Source: an uncultured Clostridium sp.
GTDB lineage: Bacteria > Bacillota > Clostridia > TANB77 > CAG-508
Length of the DNA: 33,387 nucleotides
Assembly: GCA_964415805.1 (NCBI GenBank)
Contig: CAYQBQ010000002.1
Coordinates: 1 to 33,387, forward strand
Direction of reading: 5' to 3'
Shown here in pieces: positions 1,428 to 33,387 of the stretch. Under the pieces are notes generated by a model that was given only the letters and a program-made list of their open reading frames with translations, was not told the DNA's origin and ran no database searches. The translations under genes were made by a program, and so were the position numbers. Within the stretch, counting starts at the first letter, position 1, and every line of letters starts with the position of its first letter.

Positions 1428-2387
1428 TTATTGTAATTTTGGACGTTCTATTGTTATTTTTCCTAATTTTCCATTTTTGAATTCATCTAATATTAATCTT
1501 GATGTTTTTTCTTCATCTACTCTTCCTCCAGCCATTATGCATCCTCTTTTTTTACCTATTTCAAGCATTATTTCGTAAATATTGTTGTTTTCTGGTTGGT
1601 CTTGTCCTAATATGTTTTCTATGTATTCTTCATCTAATTTGTATCTCTCATATAATTTTTTTCTGTAGTTTTCTAATAAAAGTTTTGTTAATTGATATGC
1701 TATTTCTATCTTGTCTAATATTTCTTCTTTTATTGAGCCTGTGAAACATAAATGTAATGCTACTTCTTCACTTTCAAATTTTGGCCATAACACACCTGGT
1801 GTATCTAATAATTCTATTTTTTCATTTATTCGTATCCATTGTTTTTGTTTTGTTACTCCTGGTTTATTTCCTACTCCTGCTGTTGTTCTTTTTGATATTC
1901 TGTTTATAAATGATGACTTTCCTACATTTGGTATTCCTAGTATCATTGCTCTTATTCTTCTTCCTGTTCTTCCTTTTTCAGCATGTGCATCTAAGTCTAC
2001 TTTCATTATTTTTTCTATTTCTCTAATACATTCATCTATTCCTCTTCCAGAATTTGAATCTACTAATACTGCTGGAATGTTTTTGTTTTTGAAGTATTCT
2101 ACCCATAGTTTGTTTTGTTTGTCGTCTGATAAGTCACATTTGTTTAGTACTATTATTTTCTTTTTGTTTTTTGTTATTTCTGCTATGTTAGGGTTTTGGC
2201 TTGATATTGGTATTCTTGCGTCTAATAGTTCTATTACTATGTCTATTAGTTTTAGGTCTTGTATTATTTGTTTTTTTGTTTTTGCCATATGCCCTGGGTA
2301 CCAGTTGATTCCTACTTTTGAAAACCTTTCTTGATTATCATTATTTTTCTTTTCTTGCCTCATTTTTCTTTTTTGATACATATCCAT
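1428..2387 (-). CDS. rbgA: Ribosome biogenesis GTPase A (YlqF/RbgA)
   Basis: Carries INWYPGHMAKTKK, the circularly permuted GTPase motifs (LNKCDL ... GIPNVGKSS ... DTPG), and a C-terminal helical domain. The track start is a GTG. I chose the ATG (MDMYQ...) 12 nt downstream, which lies behind GAAGGTG. The basic N-terminal extension leaves the start uncertain. Confidence 0.85.
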   Translation of the reverse strand: MDMYQKRKMRQEKKNNDNQERFSKVGINWYPGHMAKTKKQIIQDLKLIDIVIELLDARIPISSQNPNIAEITKNKKKIIVLNKCDLSDDKQNKLWVEYFKNKNIPAVLVDSNSGRGIDECIREIEKIMKVDLDAHAEKGRTGRRIRAMILGIPNVGKSSFINRISKRTTAGVGNKPGVTKQKQWIRINEKIELLDTPGVLWPKFESEEVALHLCFTGSIKEEILDKIEIAYQLTKLLLENYRKKLYERYKLDEEYIENILGQDQPENNNIYEIMLEIGKKRGCIMAGGRVDEEKTSRLILDEFKNGKLGKITIERPKLQ

Positions 2388-2497
2388 TTTAATTTTCACC
2401 TTCTTCTTTTACATCTATATCCGTAATTTTGATTTCTTAAACTAGGTTCTACTGCTTAAATACTACAATCTGTTACATTCCTTCTTTATATTTTTTT

Positions 2498-2977
2498 CTA
2501 CATTGTTCTATAATTGTTTTTGTCAGCTCTATCATCTAACTTTCTATCAAACTCTTCGTTTTTATAAAACCAATCTGTTTTTTTATCTGTAGGATTTTGC
2601 TTTCTATTTTTATCTAGTAATAAATCTATTAAAACAGCCAATGGTAAAATTATTCCTAATATAGAAAACATTAATTGTGTGTTTTGGGCTAAAGTTAATG
2701 TTTCATTGTTTGATATTATATTTAATTTATTTGTTATATCCCCTCCAAAATAGATTGCGTGCAATGTAAGGTATAACAAGCTTCCTACTAATTTTCTTTT
2801 TACTATTAACACTAAGCATAATAAGGTTGCAAATAATATTGCAATTTCAAATGTTTCATTCATTGGTACCATTCCCATAAAATCTTTTCCCATTTGTGAC
2901 ATCATTGTAACTATTATTCTTACTATCCAGAATACTATCATAAACATTACTAATAAATATGTTGAAAATTTTTTCAT
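2498..2977 (-). CDS. Hypothetical integral membrane protein (about 4 TM segments)
   Basis: The ORF has four hydrophobic segments. The GAAGGAGGAA Shine-Dalgarno sequence lies inside the track's first 5 codons, so the start was moved to the ATG of MKKFSTYLL. Confidence 0.55.
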   Translation of the reverse strand: MKKFSTYLLVMFMIVFWIVRIIVTMMSQMGKDFMGMVPMNETFEIAILFATLLCLVLIVKRKLVGSLLYLTLHAIYFGGDITNKLNIISNNETLTLAQNTQLMFSILGIILPLAVLIDLLLDKNRKQNPTDKKTDWFYKNEEFDRKLDDRADKNNYRTM

Positions 2978-3042
2978 ATCTTCCTCCTTCATTTTATCTA
3001 AAAAATATTACTTCATTATTTTATTTAAATTTAATTTCTGTT

Positions 3043-3069
3043 AAAAAGGGGCGTCTCTTTTGACACCCC
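3043..3069 (-). terminator. Rho-independent terminator after the DUF1292 gene
   Basis: The minus-strand RNA forms GGGGUGUC-aaaaga-GACGCCCC (one G-U pair) followed by UUUUU. Confidence 0.7.
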
Positions 3070-3092
3070 CCTAACTCCACTTTTATTTTTTA

Positions 3093-3401
3093 TTAGTCAA
3101 CAAAATCAAAATCGTCTTTAAATTTTTCTTTGAATATTTCAAATACTTTATTTAATGTATCTTCATCTTCTACACTTACATATGATTCTTCTTCTGATTC
3201 TTCATCATCACTATCTTCTACTTTTAATATTACTACTTCTCCTTCATCTTCTTCTCCCTCTTCTGTGACTGGTAATAATACTACATATTCTTCATCGTCT
3301 AGTTCTATTAAATCTAAAAATTCGAATTTAACTTCATTTCCATCTTCATCATTTAATATTACTATGTTATCTAATTCTTGTCCTTCATAATTTTCATCCA
3401 T
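3093..3401 (-). CDS. DUF1292-family small acidic protein
   Basis: 102 aa and extremely acidic, with the core pattern DEDGNEVKFEFLDLIELDDEEYVVLLP typical of DUF1292. It has the usual position after ruvX. Confidence 0.75.
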   Translation of the reverse strand: MDENYEGQELDNIVILNDEDGNEVKFEFLDLIELDDEEYVVLLPVTEEGEEDEGEVVILKVEDSDDEESEEESYVSVEDEDTLNKVFEIFKEKFKDDFDFVD

Positions 3402-20493: not shown

Positions 20494-20570
20494 GGGATTA
20501 AGGGGCCACCACACAAAATCCCTATTTTTTTTATAACTACCGGGATTTTGTGTGGTGGCCCCTTAATCCC
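20494..20570. repeat. Perfect 29-bp inverted repeat with a 19-nt loop (GC-rich palindromic element A)
   Basis: GGGATTAAGGGGCCACCACACAAAATCCC (20494-20522) is the exact reverse complement of 20542-20570. It lies between the DUF4116 stop and the pfk Shine-Dalgarno sequence. No U-tract follows on either strand. Confidence 0.9.
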
Positions 20571-20575
20571 GCTTT

Positions 20576-21136
20576 TTATCCTATAAGACTTTTTATTTCC
20601 TCATCATTTTTCAATTCTTTGCTTAAGAATTGAAATGCTCTTTTATCTTGTTTTATGGCAATCTCTGCAATTTCTTTATCATTTCTTAATCTTAGACTTG
20701 CATATTTTACAATTAAACCTTTATTTTCAACAGCAGCCTTAACTACTTCTTTGTCATCTCTCAACTTTTTACTTGCATAATATAGTGTTTGTCCATATTC
20801 TTTTACACTTGCCATTATGACATCTTTATCAGCCTTTAATCTTTCAGATACATAGCATGCAGTCCATGGAGCTTTATTTATTGCAAGTAATGCAATTTGT
20901 TTATTATCCCTAAGTCTATCAGATACAAATTCCATTGTTTCTCCATCTTGTTCTAATGCTGTTTTTACAATTTCCTCATCATCTTGAAATTCTGGTATCG
21001 CAAACTCTAATAACTTTCCTTTATTTTGTACCGCTTTCAAGACATATTCTCTATTATCTTTATTTGCCTTCATCTCTGTTACATCTGGATCTTCCATTAA
21101 TTTTCTTTCCTTTCGACATTTTTCTACATATTTCAT
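20576..21136 (-). CDS. DUF4116 repeat protein
   Basis: 186 aa built from repeated units of about 30 aa, of the type (A/V)(V/L)xQ(N/D)Gxxhx(F/Y)(A/V)Sxxh(R/K)(D/N)(D/N)KE(I/V)hxxA(I/V). The Shine-Dalgarno sequence at the first ATG is weak, so the start is uncertain. Confidence 0.65.
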   Translation of the reverse strand: MKYVEKCRKERKLMEDPDVTEMKANKDNREYVLKAVQNKGKLLEFAIPEFQDDEEIVKTALEQDGETMEFVSDRLRDNKQIALLAINKAPWTACYVSERLKADKDVIMASVKEYGQTLYYASKKLRDDKEVVKAAVENKGLIVKYASLRLRNDKEIAEIAIKQDKRAFQFLSKELKNDEEIKSLIG

Positions 21137-21156
21137 GAGACAAATTAAGACCGTCC

Positions 21157-21819
21157 CTATTGTCTCATTTTTGCTATTAATGCTTTTATTTTTATTCCTT
21201 GCTCAGAAAACATTTTTTCATGTTCTGTTTCAATATTATTTTCAAAAATTGGTTCTTTATGCAAATCAAATGTTTTTGATATTATTTCAAAACCACTTTC
21301 TTCAAAATAAATCAAGCTTGAATTAAATAAATCGTCATCATCTGTCTTAAAAAAGATTTCTCCATCTTTTGATAAAAATTGCTTGTATTTTTCAAGTTGT
21401 CTTGTATGAGTAAGTCTTTTCTTTCTGTGTTTTCCTTTTGGCCATGGATTACAAAAATTTATATATATTCTTTTTATATTATCTTGCTCATTTAAAATCA
21501 TTAATATTCTTTCTATATCGAATCTTGTTAAAAGAATGTTATCAGTTTCTATATGGTTTTCTTGATAAATTTGTTCAACATTTCTCTTTGCTAATCCTAA
21601 CATCGCATCTACTAAATCTATTGCAATATAATTTGTGTTTAAATTGCTTGATGCTAAATTTGCTATAAATTGTCCTTTTCCACATCCTAATTCTAGATGT
21701 ATTGGATTATCTGGATTTTTAAAAAGTTCTTTCCATTTTCCTTTGTATTCTTCTGGATTGTCTATATAAAATTTACTTGCTTCTAATTCGGGTCTTGCCC
21801 ATTTTTTATATCTTATTCT
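21157..21819 (-). CDS. trmB: tRNA (guanine46-N7)-methyltransferase
   Basis: [13 protein letters not shown] starts like Bacillus TrmB. The SAM motif is [10 protein letters not shown], and FNFCNPWPK-like [16 protein letters not shown] is present. The start was moved to the ATG behind GGTGA. Confidence 0.85.
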
Positions 21820-24262: not shown

Positions 24263-24541
24263 ATGGTTTCTGTTAATTTGTATAGTGAAAGTTCTAAGGA
24301 ATTAGAAAGGTTTTTAAGTTTATTTTATAATTCTTCTTTTAGTATAAATAATAATTTAAATTGGGAACATAGATATAAGAATCCAATAGAGATTACTGAA
24401 ATAATTGGTGCTTTTGTAGATAATTTTGAAGATTTTAAAATTATGATGTGGATATCTTTAGACAAAGGTGTTTACATTCATGTAACAAAGGATAATGCTA
24501 ATAACTTAATTAAATATTTATATGAAAGATATCCTTATTAA
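24263..24541 (+). CDS. Hypothetical small protein (92 aa)
   Basis: The ORF lies behind a TAGGAGAA Shine-Dalgarno sequence. No motif was recognised. Confidence 0.5.
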   Translation: MVSVNLYSESSKELERFLSLFYNSSFSINNNLNWEHRYKNPIEITEIIGAFVDNFEDFKIMMWISLDKGVYIHVTKDNANNLIKYLYERYPY

Positions 24542-24549
24542 TGGACGTT

Positions 24550-24628
24550 TTGAACCAATGGGGACGTTCTTAAATTGGTAGAAATCGCATTGATTTCAAC
24601 CAATTTAAGAACGTCCCCGTTGGTTCAA
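24550..24628. repeat. 30-bp-stem, 19-nt-loop palindromic element B (same family as 32440-32512)
   Basis: TTGAACCAATGGGGACGTTCTTAAATTGGT (24550-24579) pairs with 24599-24628 with a single T-G mismatch (24559/24619). It lies between convergent genes and starts 9 nt after the stop of the 92-aa ORF. Confidence 0.9.
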
Positions 24629-24647
24629 TCCGCTTGATTAAAAGCGT

Positions 24648-25196
24648 CTATTCTTCTTTCAAATGTTCCACAGTTTCATCATGATTTTCATCAACATCTG
24701 ATTCAATTGAAACTGTTTTTTCTAAATCAGATTTTTCCTCTTTTTCTTGTTTTCCATTGTCTTCTAAATTCTCATTTTTTTTATTTGATTCATCAACTAT
24801 TTCAACTTCTTTTGCAGACTCTTCTTTTATTTCTTCTTGTTTAGTTCCACATTTTGGACAAAATTTTACATCTTTTTCTATTTCTGCATAACAATTTGGA
24901 CATTTTCTTTTATCTTTTAATTCTAAACATTGTTTTAAAATTGAATCTATTTCATCACTTAAACAATCAATCTTTGTACATTGTTCTTCTAATTCATTAG
25001 TAATATCTTCTTTTTCCTCTTTAACATGATTTTCATATACAATTTTGCCGATTTCTTCATATATGTCATTAATTTCAGATTTTAGTTCTCCCATTTTCAT
25101 TCTAAGTTTAGCTTCTTTTGCTAATTTTCCTGTTTTATCTGCTGTTACTTTGTATGCCTCACTTGCTTTTTTTCCTAATTTATCAAAAAATTCCAT
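24648..25196 (-). CDS. Zinc-ribbon domain protein with a helical N-terminus and acidic tail
   Basis: 182 aa. CPNCYAEIEKDVKFCPKCG is a CxxC-x10-CxxC ribbon. A strong AAGGAGG Shine-Dalgarno sequence is present. Confidence 0.65.
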   Translation of the reverse strand: MEFFDKLGKKASEAYKVTADKTGKLAKEAKLRMKMGELKSEINDIYEEIGKIVYENHVKEEKEDITNELEEQCTKIDCLSDEIDSILKQCLELKDKRKCPNCYAEIEKDVKFCPKCGTKQEEIKEESAKEVEIVDESNKKNENLEDNGKQEKEEKSDLEKTVSIESDVDENHDETVEHLKEE

Positions 25197-30612: not shown

Positions 30613-30751
30613 AAGTACCATCTCCTTCTAATTTTTTTGTATTATAATTATATGAAAATAAATTAGCTTTGTCAATTTTTTATGATAATAAAAATTTGAA
30701 GATTTAAAAATTTTATGATATCATATATAAAATTTGAAAGGAATGATTTTA

Positions 30752-32437
30752 ATGGCATTTGATGGAATTGTAACAAAAGCAATAGCAACAGAACTATCTG
30801 AACTCAATGGAGCAAGAATAGACAAAGTTTTTCAACCCACTAAAAATGAAATAATATTAGGATTATATTTAAATAAAAAAAACTATGCACTAAACATATG
30901 CATAGATTCACAGAATTGCAGAATTAATTTAACAACAAATTCTAAACCTAACCCACAAGTTGCACCTAACTTTTGCATGTTATTACGTAAAAATTTAATA
31001 GGTCTAAAATTAAAAAATATTATAACATTCGATTTAGAAAGATTAGTCATCTTAGAATTTGAAGGTTTTGATGAATTAGATGATATTATTTCAAAAAAAT
31101 TAATAATTGAATTAATGGGAAAACATAGCAACATAATTCTATTAGATGATGCAAATATAATTATTGATAGTTTAAGACATATTACAGAAATTGATGAAAA
31201 TTATAGAGATATATTACCACATACAAAGTATAGTTATCCAACTTCAAATAAATGTAGCTTTTTGGAATTAAAAGATTTTGAAGACTTTAAAAATCTTTTA
31301 GATATCTCTGATATTGGCACTTTTCCTACTCAAATTTCAAACACTTTTAACGGTATATCTAAAGGTTTTATTAATTCTATAATTAAAAAACTAGAAATCA
31401 AAGATTTGACTGTTTCAAATTTAGAACTTATTTATAATTATATCAAAAATATAATTGATAACATTGGAACTAATAATTTGTCTTTTAAAAAAGTAAAGAA
31501 TCAAGAAGGAATTATAAAAGACTATTTTTTAGTCAATTCAAAATCCACAAAACCTTTTGAATTGAACTTTTTTATAGATGATTTTTATTACAGCAAAGAA
31601 ATCTCTGAAGCATTTCGAAATTATAGAAATACTTTATTAAAACTTATTTTGGATACATTAAAAAAATATAATAAAAGATTATATAATATAAATGAAAAAT
31701 TACATGAATGTGATGATATGGAGAAATATAGAATCTATGGTGAGCTTATTACTGCAAATCTATATCGTATTCCAAATAAAAATTTAGAAGAAATCGAATT
31801 AGAAAACTATTATGATAATAATAATAAAATTTTAATTAAGCTTGATAAACGCTACTCTCCTAGTATTAACGCAAAAAAATTTTTCAAAAAATACTCTAAA
31901 CTTAAAAATGCATTAGCAATTGTTTCTGAACAGAAAAAAGATACTTTAAAAGAACTTGATTATATTGAAAGTATTGTTTATGAGCTTGAAAGTTCTACTT
32001 CAATTGATGAACTTACATCAATTTTTGATGAAATTTCTGAAAATGATATTTTTAAAGAAAAAACTTCCAGAGTCAATAATACAAAAAAATCTAAAATAAA
32101 ATATAATGTTGATGGTTACACTGTTTTAGTTGGTAGAAATAATAAGGAAAATGATTATTTAACTCTAAAATACGCTAGCAAAAATGATATATGGTTTCAT
32201 ACAAAAGATTTTCATGGTAGTCATACAATTTTAAAAATAACAAATAATTTACCTTATCCTAATTTTGAGATTTTAGTTGAGACTGCTAAAATTGCTGCAC
32301 AACATAGCAAGGCAAAGAACTCCTCAAATGTTCCTGTTGATTATTGTGAAGTAAAATATGTAAAAAAACCTTCTGGTTCAAGGCCTGGTATGGTTATTTA
32401 TACAAATAATAAAACTTTGAATGTTAATCCTTTATAA
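30752..32437 (+). CDS. rqcH: Ribosome quality-control protein RqcH (NFACT family; formerly fibronectin-binding protein A-like)
   Basis: MAFDGIVTKAIATEL...ARIDKVFQP is the NFACT-N start. ELMGKHSNIILLD, a long coiled coil and the C-terminal NFACT-R motif (VGRNNKENDYLT...DIWFHTKDFHGSH) are present. The start is set at the ATG behind AAAGGAA. Confidence 0.88.
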   Translation: MAFDGIVTKAIATELSELNGARIDKVFQPTKNEIILGLYLNKKNYALNICIDSQNCRINLTTNSKPNPQVAPNFCMLLRKNLIGLKLKNIITFDLERLVILEFEGFDELDDIISKKLIIELMGKHSNIILLDDANIIIDSLRHITEIDENYRDILPHTKYSYPTSNKCSFLELKDFEDFKNLLDISDIGTFPTQISNTFNGISKGFINSIIKKLEIKDLTVSNLELIYNYIKNIIDNIGTNNLSFKKVKNQEGIIKDYFLVNSKSTKPFELNFFIDDFYYSKEISEAFRNYRNTLLKLILDTLKKYNKRLYNINEKLHECDDMEKYRIYGELITANLYRIPNKNLEEIELENYYDNNNKILIKLDKRYSPSINAKKFFKKYSKLKNALAIVSEQKKDTLKELDYIESIVYELESSTSIDELTSIFDEISENDIFKEKTSRVNNTKKSKIKYNVDGYTVLVGRNNKENDYLTLKYASKNDIWFHTKDFHGSHTILKITNNLPYPNFEILVETAKIAAQHSKAKNSSNVPVDYCEVKYVKKPSGSRPGMVIYTNNKTLNVNPL

Positions 32438-32439
32438 AA

Positions 32440-32512
32440 TTCGACCACTGTGGACGTTCTTAATTTGGTTGTGAGTCAGTTGAACCAATTAAGAACGTCA
32501 CCAGTGGTCGAA
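32440..32512. repeat. Palindromic element C (homologous to element B), imperfect 28-bp stem
   Basis: TTCGACCACTG-tg-GACGTTCTTAA-t-TTGGTT pairs with AACCAA-TTAAGAACGTC-ac-CAGTGGTCGAA around a 12-nt loop. It lies between convergent rqcH and rimO-like genes. The left arm is 25/30 identical to the element B left arm. Confidence 0.85.
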
Positions 32513-32518
32513 TAGATT

Positions 32519-33387
32519 TTATTTTATTACACCTATCAAATCATAATTACTTACATCTGTAATCTTACACTCTACAAAACTATTCAAAACATCTTTTTCC
32601 TTTAATTTTTCATCATTCTGAATATACACTAATCCATCTTCTTCTGGAACATCTTGCATAGTACGACCAATAAAATATTTTCTATCAAAAGACATATCTT
32701 CTATTAAAACTTTATATGTATTTCCAATCTTATTTTTCAAATTTGCAAATGAAATTTCTGCTTGAGCTTTCATTATTTTATTATATCTTGATTTCTTTGT
32801 ATTTCCATGAATTTGTTCTGGAAGTCTTGCAGCTGGTGTCCCCTCTTCTTTTGAGTACATAAATGTTCCTAATCTATCAAATTTTGTAGTTTTTACAAAT
32901 GATAATAATTCCTCAAAATTTTCTTGTGTTTCTCCTGGAAAACCTACTATTAAACTTGTTCTTATTACAACATTTGGTATTTGTTTTCTTATTTTTTCTA
33001 TGATATTTGTTATGTTTTCTTTACTTGTTTTTCTATTCATTTTCTTTAATATAGAATTAGAAATATGTTGAATTGGAATGTCAAAATATTTTGCAATTTT
33101 CTCATTATTAGCTACTGTTTCTATTAGTTTATCTGTAATTCCTTCTGGATATGAATATAAAAATCTAATCCATTCTATTCCTTGTATCATACTTAATTTT
33201 TCTAATAATTCTGCAAGTTTACTTTCTCCATATATATCAACACCATATTTAGTTGTGTCTTGAGCAATAACTATTAATTCTTTTATTCCTTTTTTTTCTA
33301 GCATTTCCGCTTCTTTTAATACTTCTTCCATTTTTCTACTTACAAATGGACCTCTTATATATGGAATTGCACAATATGTACATTTAT
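32519..33387 (-). CDS. Radical-SAM methylthiotransferase, RimO-like (N-terminus outside the window)
   Basis: The reading frame stays open to the window end. The last codons read KCTYCAIPYIRGP, part of the CxxxCxxC cluster. A C-terminal TRAM-like domain is present (VECKITDVSNYDLIGV). RimO versus MiaB/MtaB cannot be settled by eye. Confidence 0.75.
   Translation of the reverse strand, partial: KCTYCAIPYIRGPFVSRKMEEVLKEAEMLEKKGIKELIVIAQDTTKYGVDIYGESKLAELLEKLSMIQGIEWIRFLYSYPEGITDKLIETVANNEKIAKYFDIPIQHISNSILKKMNRKTSKENITNIIEKIRKQIPNVVIRTSLIVGFPGETQENFEELLSFVKTTKFDRLGTFMYSKEEGTPAARLPEQIHGNTKKSRYNKIMKAQAEISFANLKNKIGNTYKVLIEDMSFDRKYFIGRTMQDVPEEDGLVYIQNDEKLKEKDVLNSFVECKITDVSNYDLIGVIK

Follow-up and report, generated by a model that had tools for sequence, protein, structure and literature searches.

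Hairpin doublets of the REPIN type in uncultured gut Clostridia and their association with a tyrosine transposase of RAYT/TIRYT type

What is a long, nearly perfect palindrome doing between the ends of two convergent genes in a small AT-rich genome, and how did it come to be there? The locus in question lies in a stretch of 33,387 nucleotides, referred to below as the window, which is contig C2 of the 1.12-Mb genome of an uncultured Clostridium sp. (154 contigs, 31% G+C, 62% complete). DNA nearly identical to the window is present in bovine, pig and sheep gut metagenomes. An earlier note, made from the letters of the window alone, had likened the palindrome to dispersed repeats of the REP/BIME type. 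Contigs of this source genome are denoted below by C numbers followed by the position, and related genomes by G numbers.

Two palindromes in the window and their repeat family

The palindrome at 24550-24628 (copy A) is real, and its sequence and coordinates are those given in the earlier note. It is 79 bases long and near-perfect, 35 of 37 positions being complementary around a 5-nt loop; a repeat finder returned two arms of 37 nt (24550-24586 and 24592-24628) that are 95% complementary. The 30-bp stem described before was found again, but not the 19-nt loop ascribed to it, as one A/A mismatch and then six further pairs lie beyond the stem and leave only 5 nt. The facing arms (..CCAATGG.. on the left, opposite ..CCGTTGG..) also bear out the single T-G pair, which is a G-U wobble in the plus-strand RNA and an A-C mismatch in the minus-strand RNA. 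The plus-strand RNA is predicted to fold with -67.3 kcal/mol (z = -14, equalled by none of 200 shuffles) and the minus-strand RNA with -60.2 kcal/mol. As had been pointed out, no U-tract follows copy A on either the plus or the minus strand, and it does not have the make-up of a canonical intrinsic terminator. An Rfam scan of 24300-24900 gave only sub-threshold matches to microRNA and sRNA hairpins, none of them near the gathering score.

Copy A consists of two units in inverted orientation around the 5-nt central loop, and thus resembles a REPIN doublet with a shortened spacer, derived from a canonical element of ~107 nt. The left unit (24549-24585, plus strand) has the core AACCAATGGGGACGTTCTTAAATTGGTA and matches the family profile with an nhmmer E-value of 7.8e-12, and the right unit (24593-24628, minus strand) does so with 3.3e-12, each differing from the 28-nt consensus by 1 mismatch. 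The partial core GGACGTT noticed before at 24543-24549 (plus strand) is present; it abuts copy A as the truncated remnant of an outer unit and resembles the partial outer copies of nested elements elsewhere. On the left, a 92-aa ORF without a Pfam family (24263-24541, plus strand) ends with its stop codon 8 nt ahead of copy A, and on the right the gene for a 182-aa zinc-ribbon protein (24648-25196, minus strand) runs towards it. The only terminator-like site in this spacer is a weak, small hairpin of 5 bp just past copy A (24631-24646, plus strand).

The second copy, reported at 32440-32512, was located at 32439-32513 (copy B). It is a doublet of the same family, likewise with a short spacer and flanked by convergent ORFs, namely an NFACT (RqcH-like) gene (30734-32437, plus strand), the stop codon of which abuts it, and a radical-SAM/TRAM gene (32519-33331, minus strand). 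Copy B carries a CCACTG variant of the arms and is more decayed (27-nt arms, 93% complementary), and its predicted fold is -42.2 kcal/mol (z = -7.5; about -42 on both strands, z about -8). A T-rich run begins 3 nt past the stem on the plus strand; the terminator scan reported no site there. The orthologous doublet is intact in G170, the nearest relative. Altogether, the 12-nt core GGACGTTCTTAA occurs five times in the window at no more than one mismatch, as compared with 0.04 occurrences expected.

A logo of 171 distinct units defines a repeat of ~34 nt with sharp borders and the consensus T[G/C][A/G]ACCAATGGGGACGTT[C/G]TTAAATTGGTTGAAA; the same logo has no conserved flanking sequence and no GTAG tag. 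The unit is itself a hairpin, with the stem AACCAAT/ATTGGTT and a conserved loop of 14 nt, GGGGACGTT(C/G)TTAA, within which a conserved GGGGACG is located (CGTC on the opposite strand). The long palindrome is therefore a repeated element, as had been supposed, but it is not the unit of repetition, being a doublet of the ~34-nt hairpin.

Further copies do exist in the source genome: a genome-wide profile search (nhmmer, E < 0.01) yielded 42 unit matches in 29 clusters, and 27 units were found at three or fewer mismatches, with none for the reversed-pattern control. All 29 clusters are intergenic, even though ORFs cover about 89% of the DNA, and many lie directly past a stop codon or a few bases ahead of a ribosome-binding site. 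The position between convergent genes holds for copies A and B but not for the family, as only 8 of the 29 clusters are convergent; 3 are divergent, most of the others lie between genes of the same direction, and 4 abut a contig end. At two places (C116:2394-2399 and C1:39072-39076) the adjoining gene takes its stop codon from a unit, namely the TGA at the outer border; at the C116 site, the stop codon in G170 is TAA instead.

Outside the source genome, an exact-pattern scan with one genome per species revealed 71 loci in about 9 metagenome-assembled genomes (MAGs) of uncultured gut Clostridia, including Clostridium sp. CAG:575, MAGs from Hadza and Nepal human guts, and one from mouse. A first draw of 40 relatives contained no units at all, which was a sampling effect, as the later scan of the full genus located the clade that bears them. 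In that scan, units occurred in 12 of 338 species genomes and at least 10 units in 7 of 338 (57, 52, 33, 28, 27, 16 and 10, the source genome being the one with 27). With so few unit-rich genomes, the family belongs to a small clade.

Doublets, Y1 genes of sister species and the missing cognate gene

Pairs and arms were analysed in the source genome, in G170 (fetched almost whole) and in the 71 loci. Among neighbouring units within 200 nt of each other, 72 pairs were arranged '+-' and none '-+'. The two arms were identical in 42 of 64 distinct doublets; over 28 positions they differed by 0.73 mismatches on average within a doublet versus 2.19 between doublets (none of 2000 permutations was as good), and 65 variant positions were mirrored in both arms as against 47 that were not. 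This covariation of the arms partly reflects subfamilies and shared descent. The spacers are AT-rich and non-palindromic, with a modal length of 45 nt, and are 93-95% identical between doublets at different loci within one genome, which shows that whole doublets of ~107 nt were copied.

Copies A and B depart from this pattern in length. Copy A has 17 nt between its 28-nt cores, the family mode being 45 nt, and 9 of 69 doublets have, like copies A and B, a spacer not exceeding 17 nt. As G170 carries longer versions at the orthologous sites of both, they look like centre-deleted derivatives. Some single units, such as that in C52, correspond to doublets at the same site in a sister genome. Moreover, an older, truncated copy symmetrically encloses 15 of 62 doublets (2.7 expected), and AACCAAT units are found at the tips of palindromes of another family (C14, C63). 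The nesting and these tip positions suggest insertion at the tips of hairpins.

The palindromes at C14 and C63 belong to one of two other hairpin families of the source genome. A second family has a unit in the window at 21134-21168 (stem ATGAGACAA/TTGTCTCAT, with CCGTCCC in the loop), and about 35 strict matches to this TGAGACA family occur in the source genome. A third is represented in the window by a perfect long palindrome at 20494-20570, GGGATTAAGGGGCCACCAC..AATCCC and its complement; it is members of this family, at C14:7573 and C63:2097, that bear AACCAAT units at their tips. Between C14:7573-7607 of the source genome and C5:12330-12364 of G170, the large GGGGCCACCAC palindrome has its interior turned round, along with the AACCAAT unit borne at the tip. 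This difference appears to be a small inversion between the palindrome arms.

The earlier note had proposed to look for an associated RAYT or IS200/IS605 Y1 transposase gene. Such an association was found in sister species but not in the source genome, in which the cognate gene is missing from its locus and the only Y1 gene found has flanks of a different hairpin family. A Pfam Y1_Tnp search of five unit-bearing genomes returned eleven genes. Two of these, one in G167 and one in G171, are preceded at 95-170 nt by a unit(+), and a unit(-) overlaps their last codons; in G132 a third Y1 gene, 70% identical, is bracketed by units in the same manner. In all three genomes the bracketed gene follows the RNase J gene; as this locus is orthologous, they represent one ancestral arrangement and not three independent associations. 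The cognate gene is present once per genome at this fixed locus, and paralogues are 31-42% identical. G132, a genome of 1.9 Mb in the same genus, has seven Y1 paralogues (38-70% identical to the cognate protein).

The bracketed genes encode proteins of 251-264 aa. Across the 11 aligned Y1 proteins (246-264 aa, compared with a core of about 146 aa) the motifs NH[AV]H (HuH) and YIHxNP (Y motif) are invariant. Their best NCBIfam match was REP_Tyr_transpos (NF047646) with 61-71 bits, which is below its cut-off of 80; the IS200 model gave 27 bits (cut-off 55). When a profile of the Y1 proteins was searched against the PDB, the sole convincing match (E <= 0.001) was E. coli TnpA_REP (4ER8, E = 2e-5), whereas a search of PDB sequences with a single Y1 protein found no match. 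In the search for a C-terminal helix-turn-helix, a weak match resembling sigma-70 region 4 (E = 2.8e-4) was obtained, and Pfam reported no helix-turn-helix.

The paralogous genes independently support the rule that a Y1 gene is flanked by inverted hairpins, as 8 of the 9 paralogous loci examined have such hairpins of their own. Seven of these loci carry GGGAC upstream and GTCCC downstream, reading GGGACAG or GGGGACG, with stems that differ (TGAGACA, CGGGATTGG, TTGGAACAA and others), while one paralogue in G170 (L097) is flanked by GGGGCCACCAC..AATCCC arms without the GGGAC motif. These arms are those of the third family described above. TGAGACA-family units flank the only Y1 gene found in the source genome (C26), as they do the orthologous genes of G170, G169 and G167.

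The loss of the cognate gene in the source genome is seen at the RNase J locus. This locus is contiguous there (C4), with only ..ATTGAACCATTGGTTGAAAGGAG.. in place of unit, gene and unit, and the short remnant ..AACCATTGGTTGAA.. (C4:12404-12440) is made up of the outer parts of the two units, which meet in a CCATTGG common to both. In G170 the RNase J locus contains this remnant as well, at 99% identity. The remnant arose either by precise excision or by a deletion between microhomologies. The Y1 gene in C26 is paralogous (50% identity over 147 aa) and flanked by the TGAGACA family, and its upstream hairpin is interrupted by an IS3-family element; no other close homologue was found in this 62%-complete assembly. 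The cognate gene is thus absent from its locus, though a copy may lie in the unassembled 38%. The orfA and orfB of this IS3-family element occupy about 1864-2046 and 2047-3329 of the C26 locus (L001), inside the upstream hairpin, and its insertion removed the first half of the upstream unit relative to G170. G168 and G169 also lack the cognate gene at the RNase J locus, and have 52 and 28 units, respectively; the four unit-rich assemblies without it (the source genome, G170, G168 and G169) thus have 27-52 units. At this locus G169 (L121) has a 260-nt insert with a lysine-rich ORF of ~75 aa and no units.

Turnover, terminator positions and alternative explanations

The sites themselves differ between species. 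Copy B is common to the source genome and G170, and a plain terminator (A-tract, hairpin, T-tract) is found in its place in G167, G168 and G169. Where the source genome has copy A, an A-tract/hairpin/T-tract structure of its own is found in each of G167, G162, G089 and G016, and the hairpin in G051 comes from a further family associated with Y1 genes. At C5:21578 of the source genome and at C4:32771 of G170, the respective partner genome has a canonical terminator instead; at the former, a unit together with a partial arm forms a G/C stem, directly after which a T-tract has been retained. The elements in C79 and C116 have empty counterparts in G170, and comparison with outgroups shows that the element in C53 is ancestral and was deleted in G170. 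As occupied and empty sites differ among sisters, the elements have come and gone in the time over which the species diverged, often at positions where relatives have terminators.

Two side observations bear on such sites. In G051, the orthologue of window 24542-24650 (L085) has CGGGATTGAAGACCTCGCCCCCAATCCCG between A- and T-tracts, which resembles the hairpins flanking the Y1 paralogue L101 of G167; going by this resemblance, some apparent terminators in the genus may be Y1-family hairpins. At four unit-bearing sites (C1:37863, C16:1911, C30:6039 and C40:7086), the source genome has the unit alone, and in G170 an additional 0.5-1.5 kb of gene-containing DNA lies beside it; the unit repeats there appear to mark points of gene gain or loss.

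We regard it as probable that copies A and B are non-autonomous mobile elements of the REPIN type, linked to a Y1 transposase and located at positions that relatives use for terminators. A possible reading, though one to which we give less than even weight, is that the element is mainly a device of the host, that is, a bidirectional terminator or stabiliser of mRNA 3' ends that replaces an ordinary terminator, its repetition being secondary; this would be compatible with a mobile origin as an exaptation. The canonical terminators of relatives at copy A, copy B and two further sites speak for it, as do the very stable hairpins predicted on both strands, the lack of another convincing terminator in the spacers of copies A and B, and the T-tract retained at C5:21578. 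However, the missing U-tracts of copy A and the frequent location of clusters between genes of the same direction, often just before a ribosome-binding site, or in 3 cases between divergent genes, do not fit such a role well, and another terminator is missing about equally with and without the element (terminator-like sites in 2 of 8 convergent spacers with an element versus 32 of 91 without, a difference that is not significant with so few cases). Two identical 163-nt contigs from RNA libraries, possibly of one data set, end at 24550, but as DNA contigs also break inside the copy A palindrome, these ends are uninformative on termination.

Two other origins can be weighed with the data on insertion sites and arms. 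We consider it highly implausible that the element is a MITE of an insertion sequence with a DDE transposase (as are Correia and RUP), moved by cut-and-paste with duplication of the target site. Its ~34-nt terminal inverted repeats, its size near 100 nt and its AT-rich interior would suit a MITE, its outer end begins with TG like those of the IS3 family, an IS3-family element exists in the source genome, and short imperfect direct repeats stand beside some copies confined to that genome. Yet no DDE gene bracketed by units was seen, whereas the Y1 gene is bracketed; the 171-unit logo has no conserved flank; and the end of the IS3 element at L001 shares only TGAACC (6 nt) with the unit, for which reason IS3 parentage was rejected. 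Nor did a rule of target-site duplication emerge: the imperfect direct repeats at the source-only elements of C53, C79 and C116 are irregular in length and might also result from deletion between microhomologies in the genome used for comparison, the C53 element is ancestral, and the spacers are variable in all the genomes. At the polymorphic sites, neither a clear target sequence nor a duplication of constant length was found. The formation of doublets in place, from single hairpins by template switching during replication (palindromisation) and without transposition of doublets, is also very unlikely, in spite of arms that are usually identical even in rare variants, partial copies that are symmetric and nested on both sides, and the different orientation of the unit at the orthologous C14:7573 in the source genome and G170. 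It does not account for non-palindromic spacers shared across loci, nor for the exclusive '+-' arrangement, which is also that around the transposase gene. Template switching may still account for the homogenisation of the arms and for the deletions at the centre.

Returning to the mobile REPIN-type reading, the canonical element of ~107 nt comprises a unit, an AT-rich spacer of ~45 nt and an inverted unit, a layout that equals that of TIRtron or REPtron ends, in which the spacer is replaced by a gene for a Y1 HUH transposase (RAYT group 1 or TIRYT type). By analogy with TnpA_REP and the IS200/IS605 enzymes, the transposase would recognise the folded single-stranded hairpin and its GGGGACG tag, and would cut and rejoin single-stranded DNA, thereby spreading doublets in trans. 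The 41 single units had no orientation bias with respect to local GC skew (Fisher p = 0.74), which gives no support for insertion specific to the lagging strand. The elements would decay by central deletions, as in copies A and B, or by loss of one arm, giving singlets, and the host would tolerate them in intergenic DNA only. With the cognate gene lost, the ~40 units of the source genome are either decaying orphans or moved by a paralogous Y1 enzyme. Where the long hairpin is transcribed at a terminator position, it probably acts as a 3' structure, that is, as a barrier to transcription, a block to exonucleases or a substrate of RNase III.

Several transposase-hairpin pairs coexist in these genomes of 1.1-1.9 Mb. 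We speculate, with low confidence, that: the GGGGAC(G) loop is a cleavage or recognition tag shared by the long RAYT-group-1/TIRYT transposases, with the stem determining the choice of paralogue; the population of the source genome is kept alive by cross-mobilisation through paralogues; and the elements prefer the tips of existing hairpins, whether terminators or older copies. If true, a shared loop tag would supply the missing REPIN-type partner for a large Y1 subclass that was without REP-like sequences in the study of Quentin et al. (PMC6006769). The sister genomes with and without the transposase gene form a natural series for the persistence or decay of repeat populations, and elements at terminator positions matter for the annotation of 3' ends and operons in MAGs and for the assembly breaks that occur there.

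Comparison with known systems

Copy number, intergenic bias and the association with a Y1 transposase bear out the earlier comparison with REP/BIME repeats, and the AACCAAT repeats form a real family of hairpin doublets, REPIN-type and restricted to one lineage, that is associated with a tyrosine transposase of RAYT/TIRYT type. With the REP/BIME and REPIN-RAYT systems of Enterobacteria and Pseudomonas (Nunvar 2010; Bertels and Rainey 2011, PMC3116915; Ton-Hoang 2012, PMC3333891) it shares a palindromic unit that is short and extragenic, inverted doublets that form one long hairpin and are copied whole, singlets that resemble decay products of doublets, a single-locus and vertically inherited Y1 HUH gene bracketed by repeats, a location mostly downstream of genes, and lineage-specific families. 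Classical REPs are tagged by GTAG at the hairpin foot, or by a terminal CGTC, whereas the conserved GGGGACG occupies the unit's loop here. A C-terminal extension makes the transposase longer by about 100 aa, the host is an uncultured member of the Clostridia with a small AT-rich genome, the copies number tens and not hundreds, and the cognate gene is absent from the source genome.

The IS200/IS605 elements and palindrome-associated MITEs have the Y1 HUH transposase fold family in common with the present system, as well as end hairpins that are presumably recognised as single-stranded DNA. However, the ends here are inverted repeats instead of a pair of hairpins on the same strand, the RAYT model suits the protein far better than the IS200 model (65-71 versus 27 bits), the gene is single-copy at a fixed locus, and the single units, unlike insertions of IS200/IS605, have no strand bias relative to GC skew. 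Among MITEs, the Correia elements of Neisseria and others like them serve as terminators or as targets of RNase III. Like the element described here, they are intergenic palindromes of ~100 nt that can replace or provide a 3' RNA structure, but Correia elements have TA target duplications and no link to Y1, whereas here no regular duplication was seen, nor any DDE parent.

A close description is that of TIRtrons and their TIRYT proteins (Di Nocera et al. 2013, PMC3733652), for which TnpA_Y1 subclass 2.1 (Quentin et al. 2018, PMC6006769) and RAYT group 1 (Bertels et al. 2017, PMC5581495) are regarded as equivalents. The last group has been reported from Clostridia, the text of Di Nocera et al. 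mentions neither Firmicutes nor Clostridia (PMC3733652), and Quentin et al. found no REP-like sequences beside subclass 2.1 genes (PMC6006769). In TIRtrons, too, a RAYT-like gene is flanked by inverted repeats with a GGGG-rich motif, and the repeats are also dispersed as dimers or clusters in moderate numbers; TIRYTs are likewise long proteins with a Y---NP motif, and they have a C-terminal helix-turn-helix-like tail. The published consensus motif of the TIRtron inverted repeats is GGGGWSAS (PMC3733652), and the motif here, GGGGACGT, agrees at 6 of its 8 positions and deviates at the last two; a further difference is that the repeats here are themselves small hairpins. The paralogues and their flanks agree with the TIRtron/TIRYT description and with TnpA_Y1 subclass 2.1, to which the Y1 protein may belong. 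The family is a new case, in uncultured gut Clostridia, of a kind of bacterial repeat already known, and no new principle; it extends REPIN-type elements and domesticated tyrosine transposases to small-genome members of this group, here from livestock gut metagenomes. Specific to the present case are the clean loss of the cognate gene, the short-spacer copies A and B, and the positions at which the elements replace the terminators of relatives.
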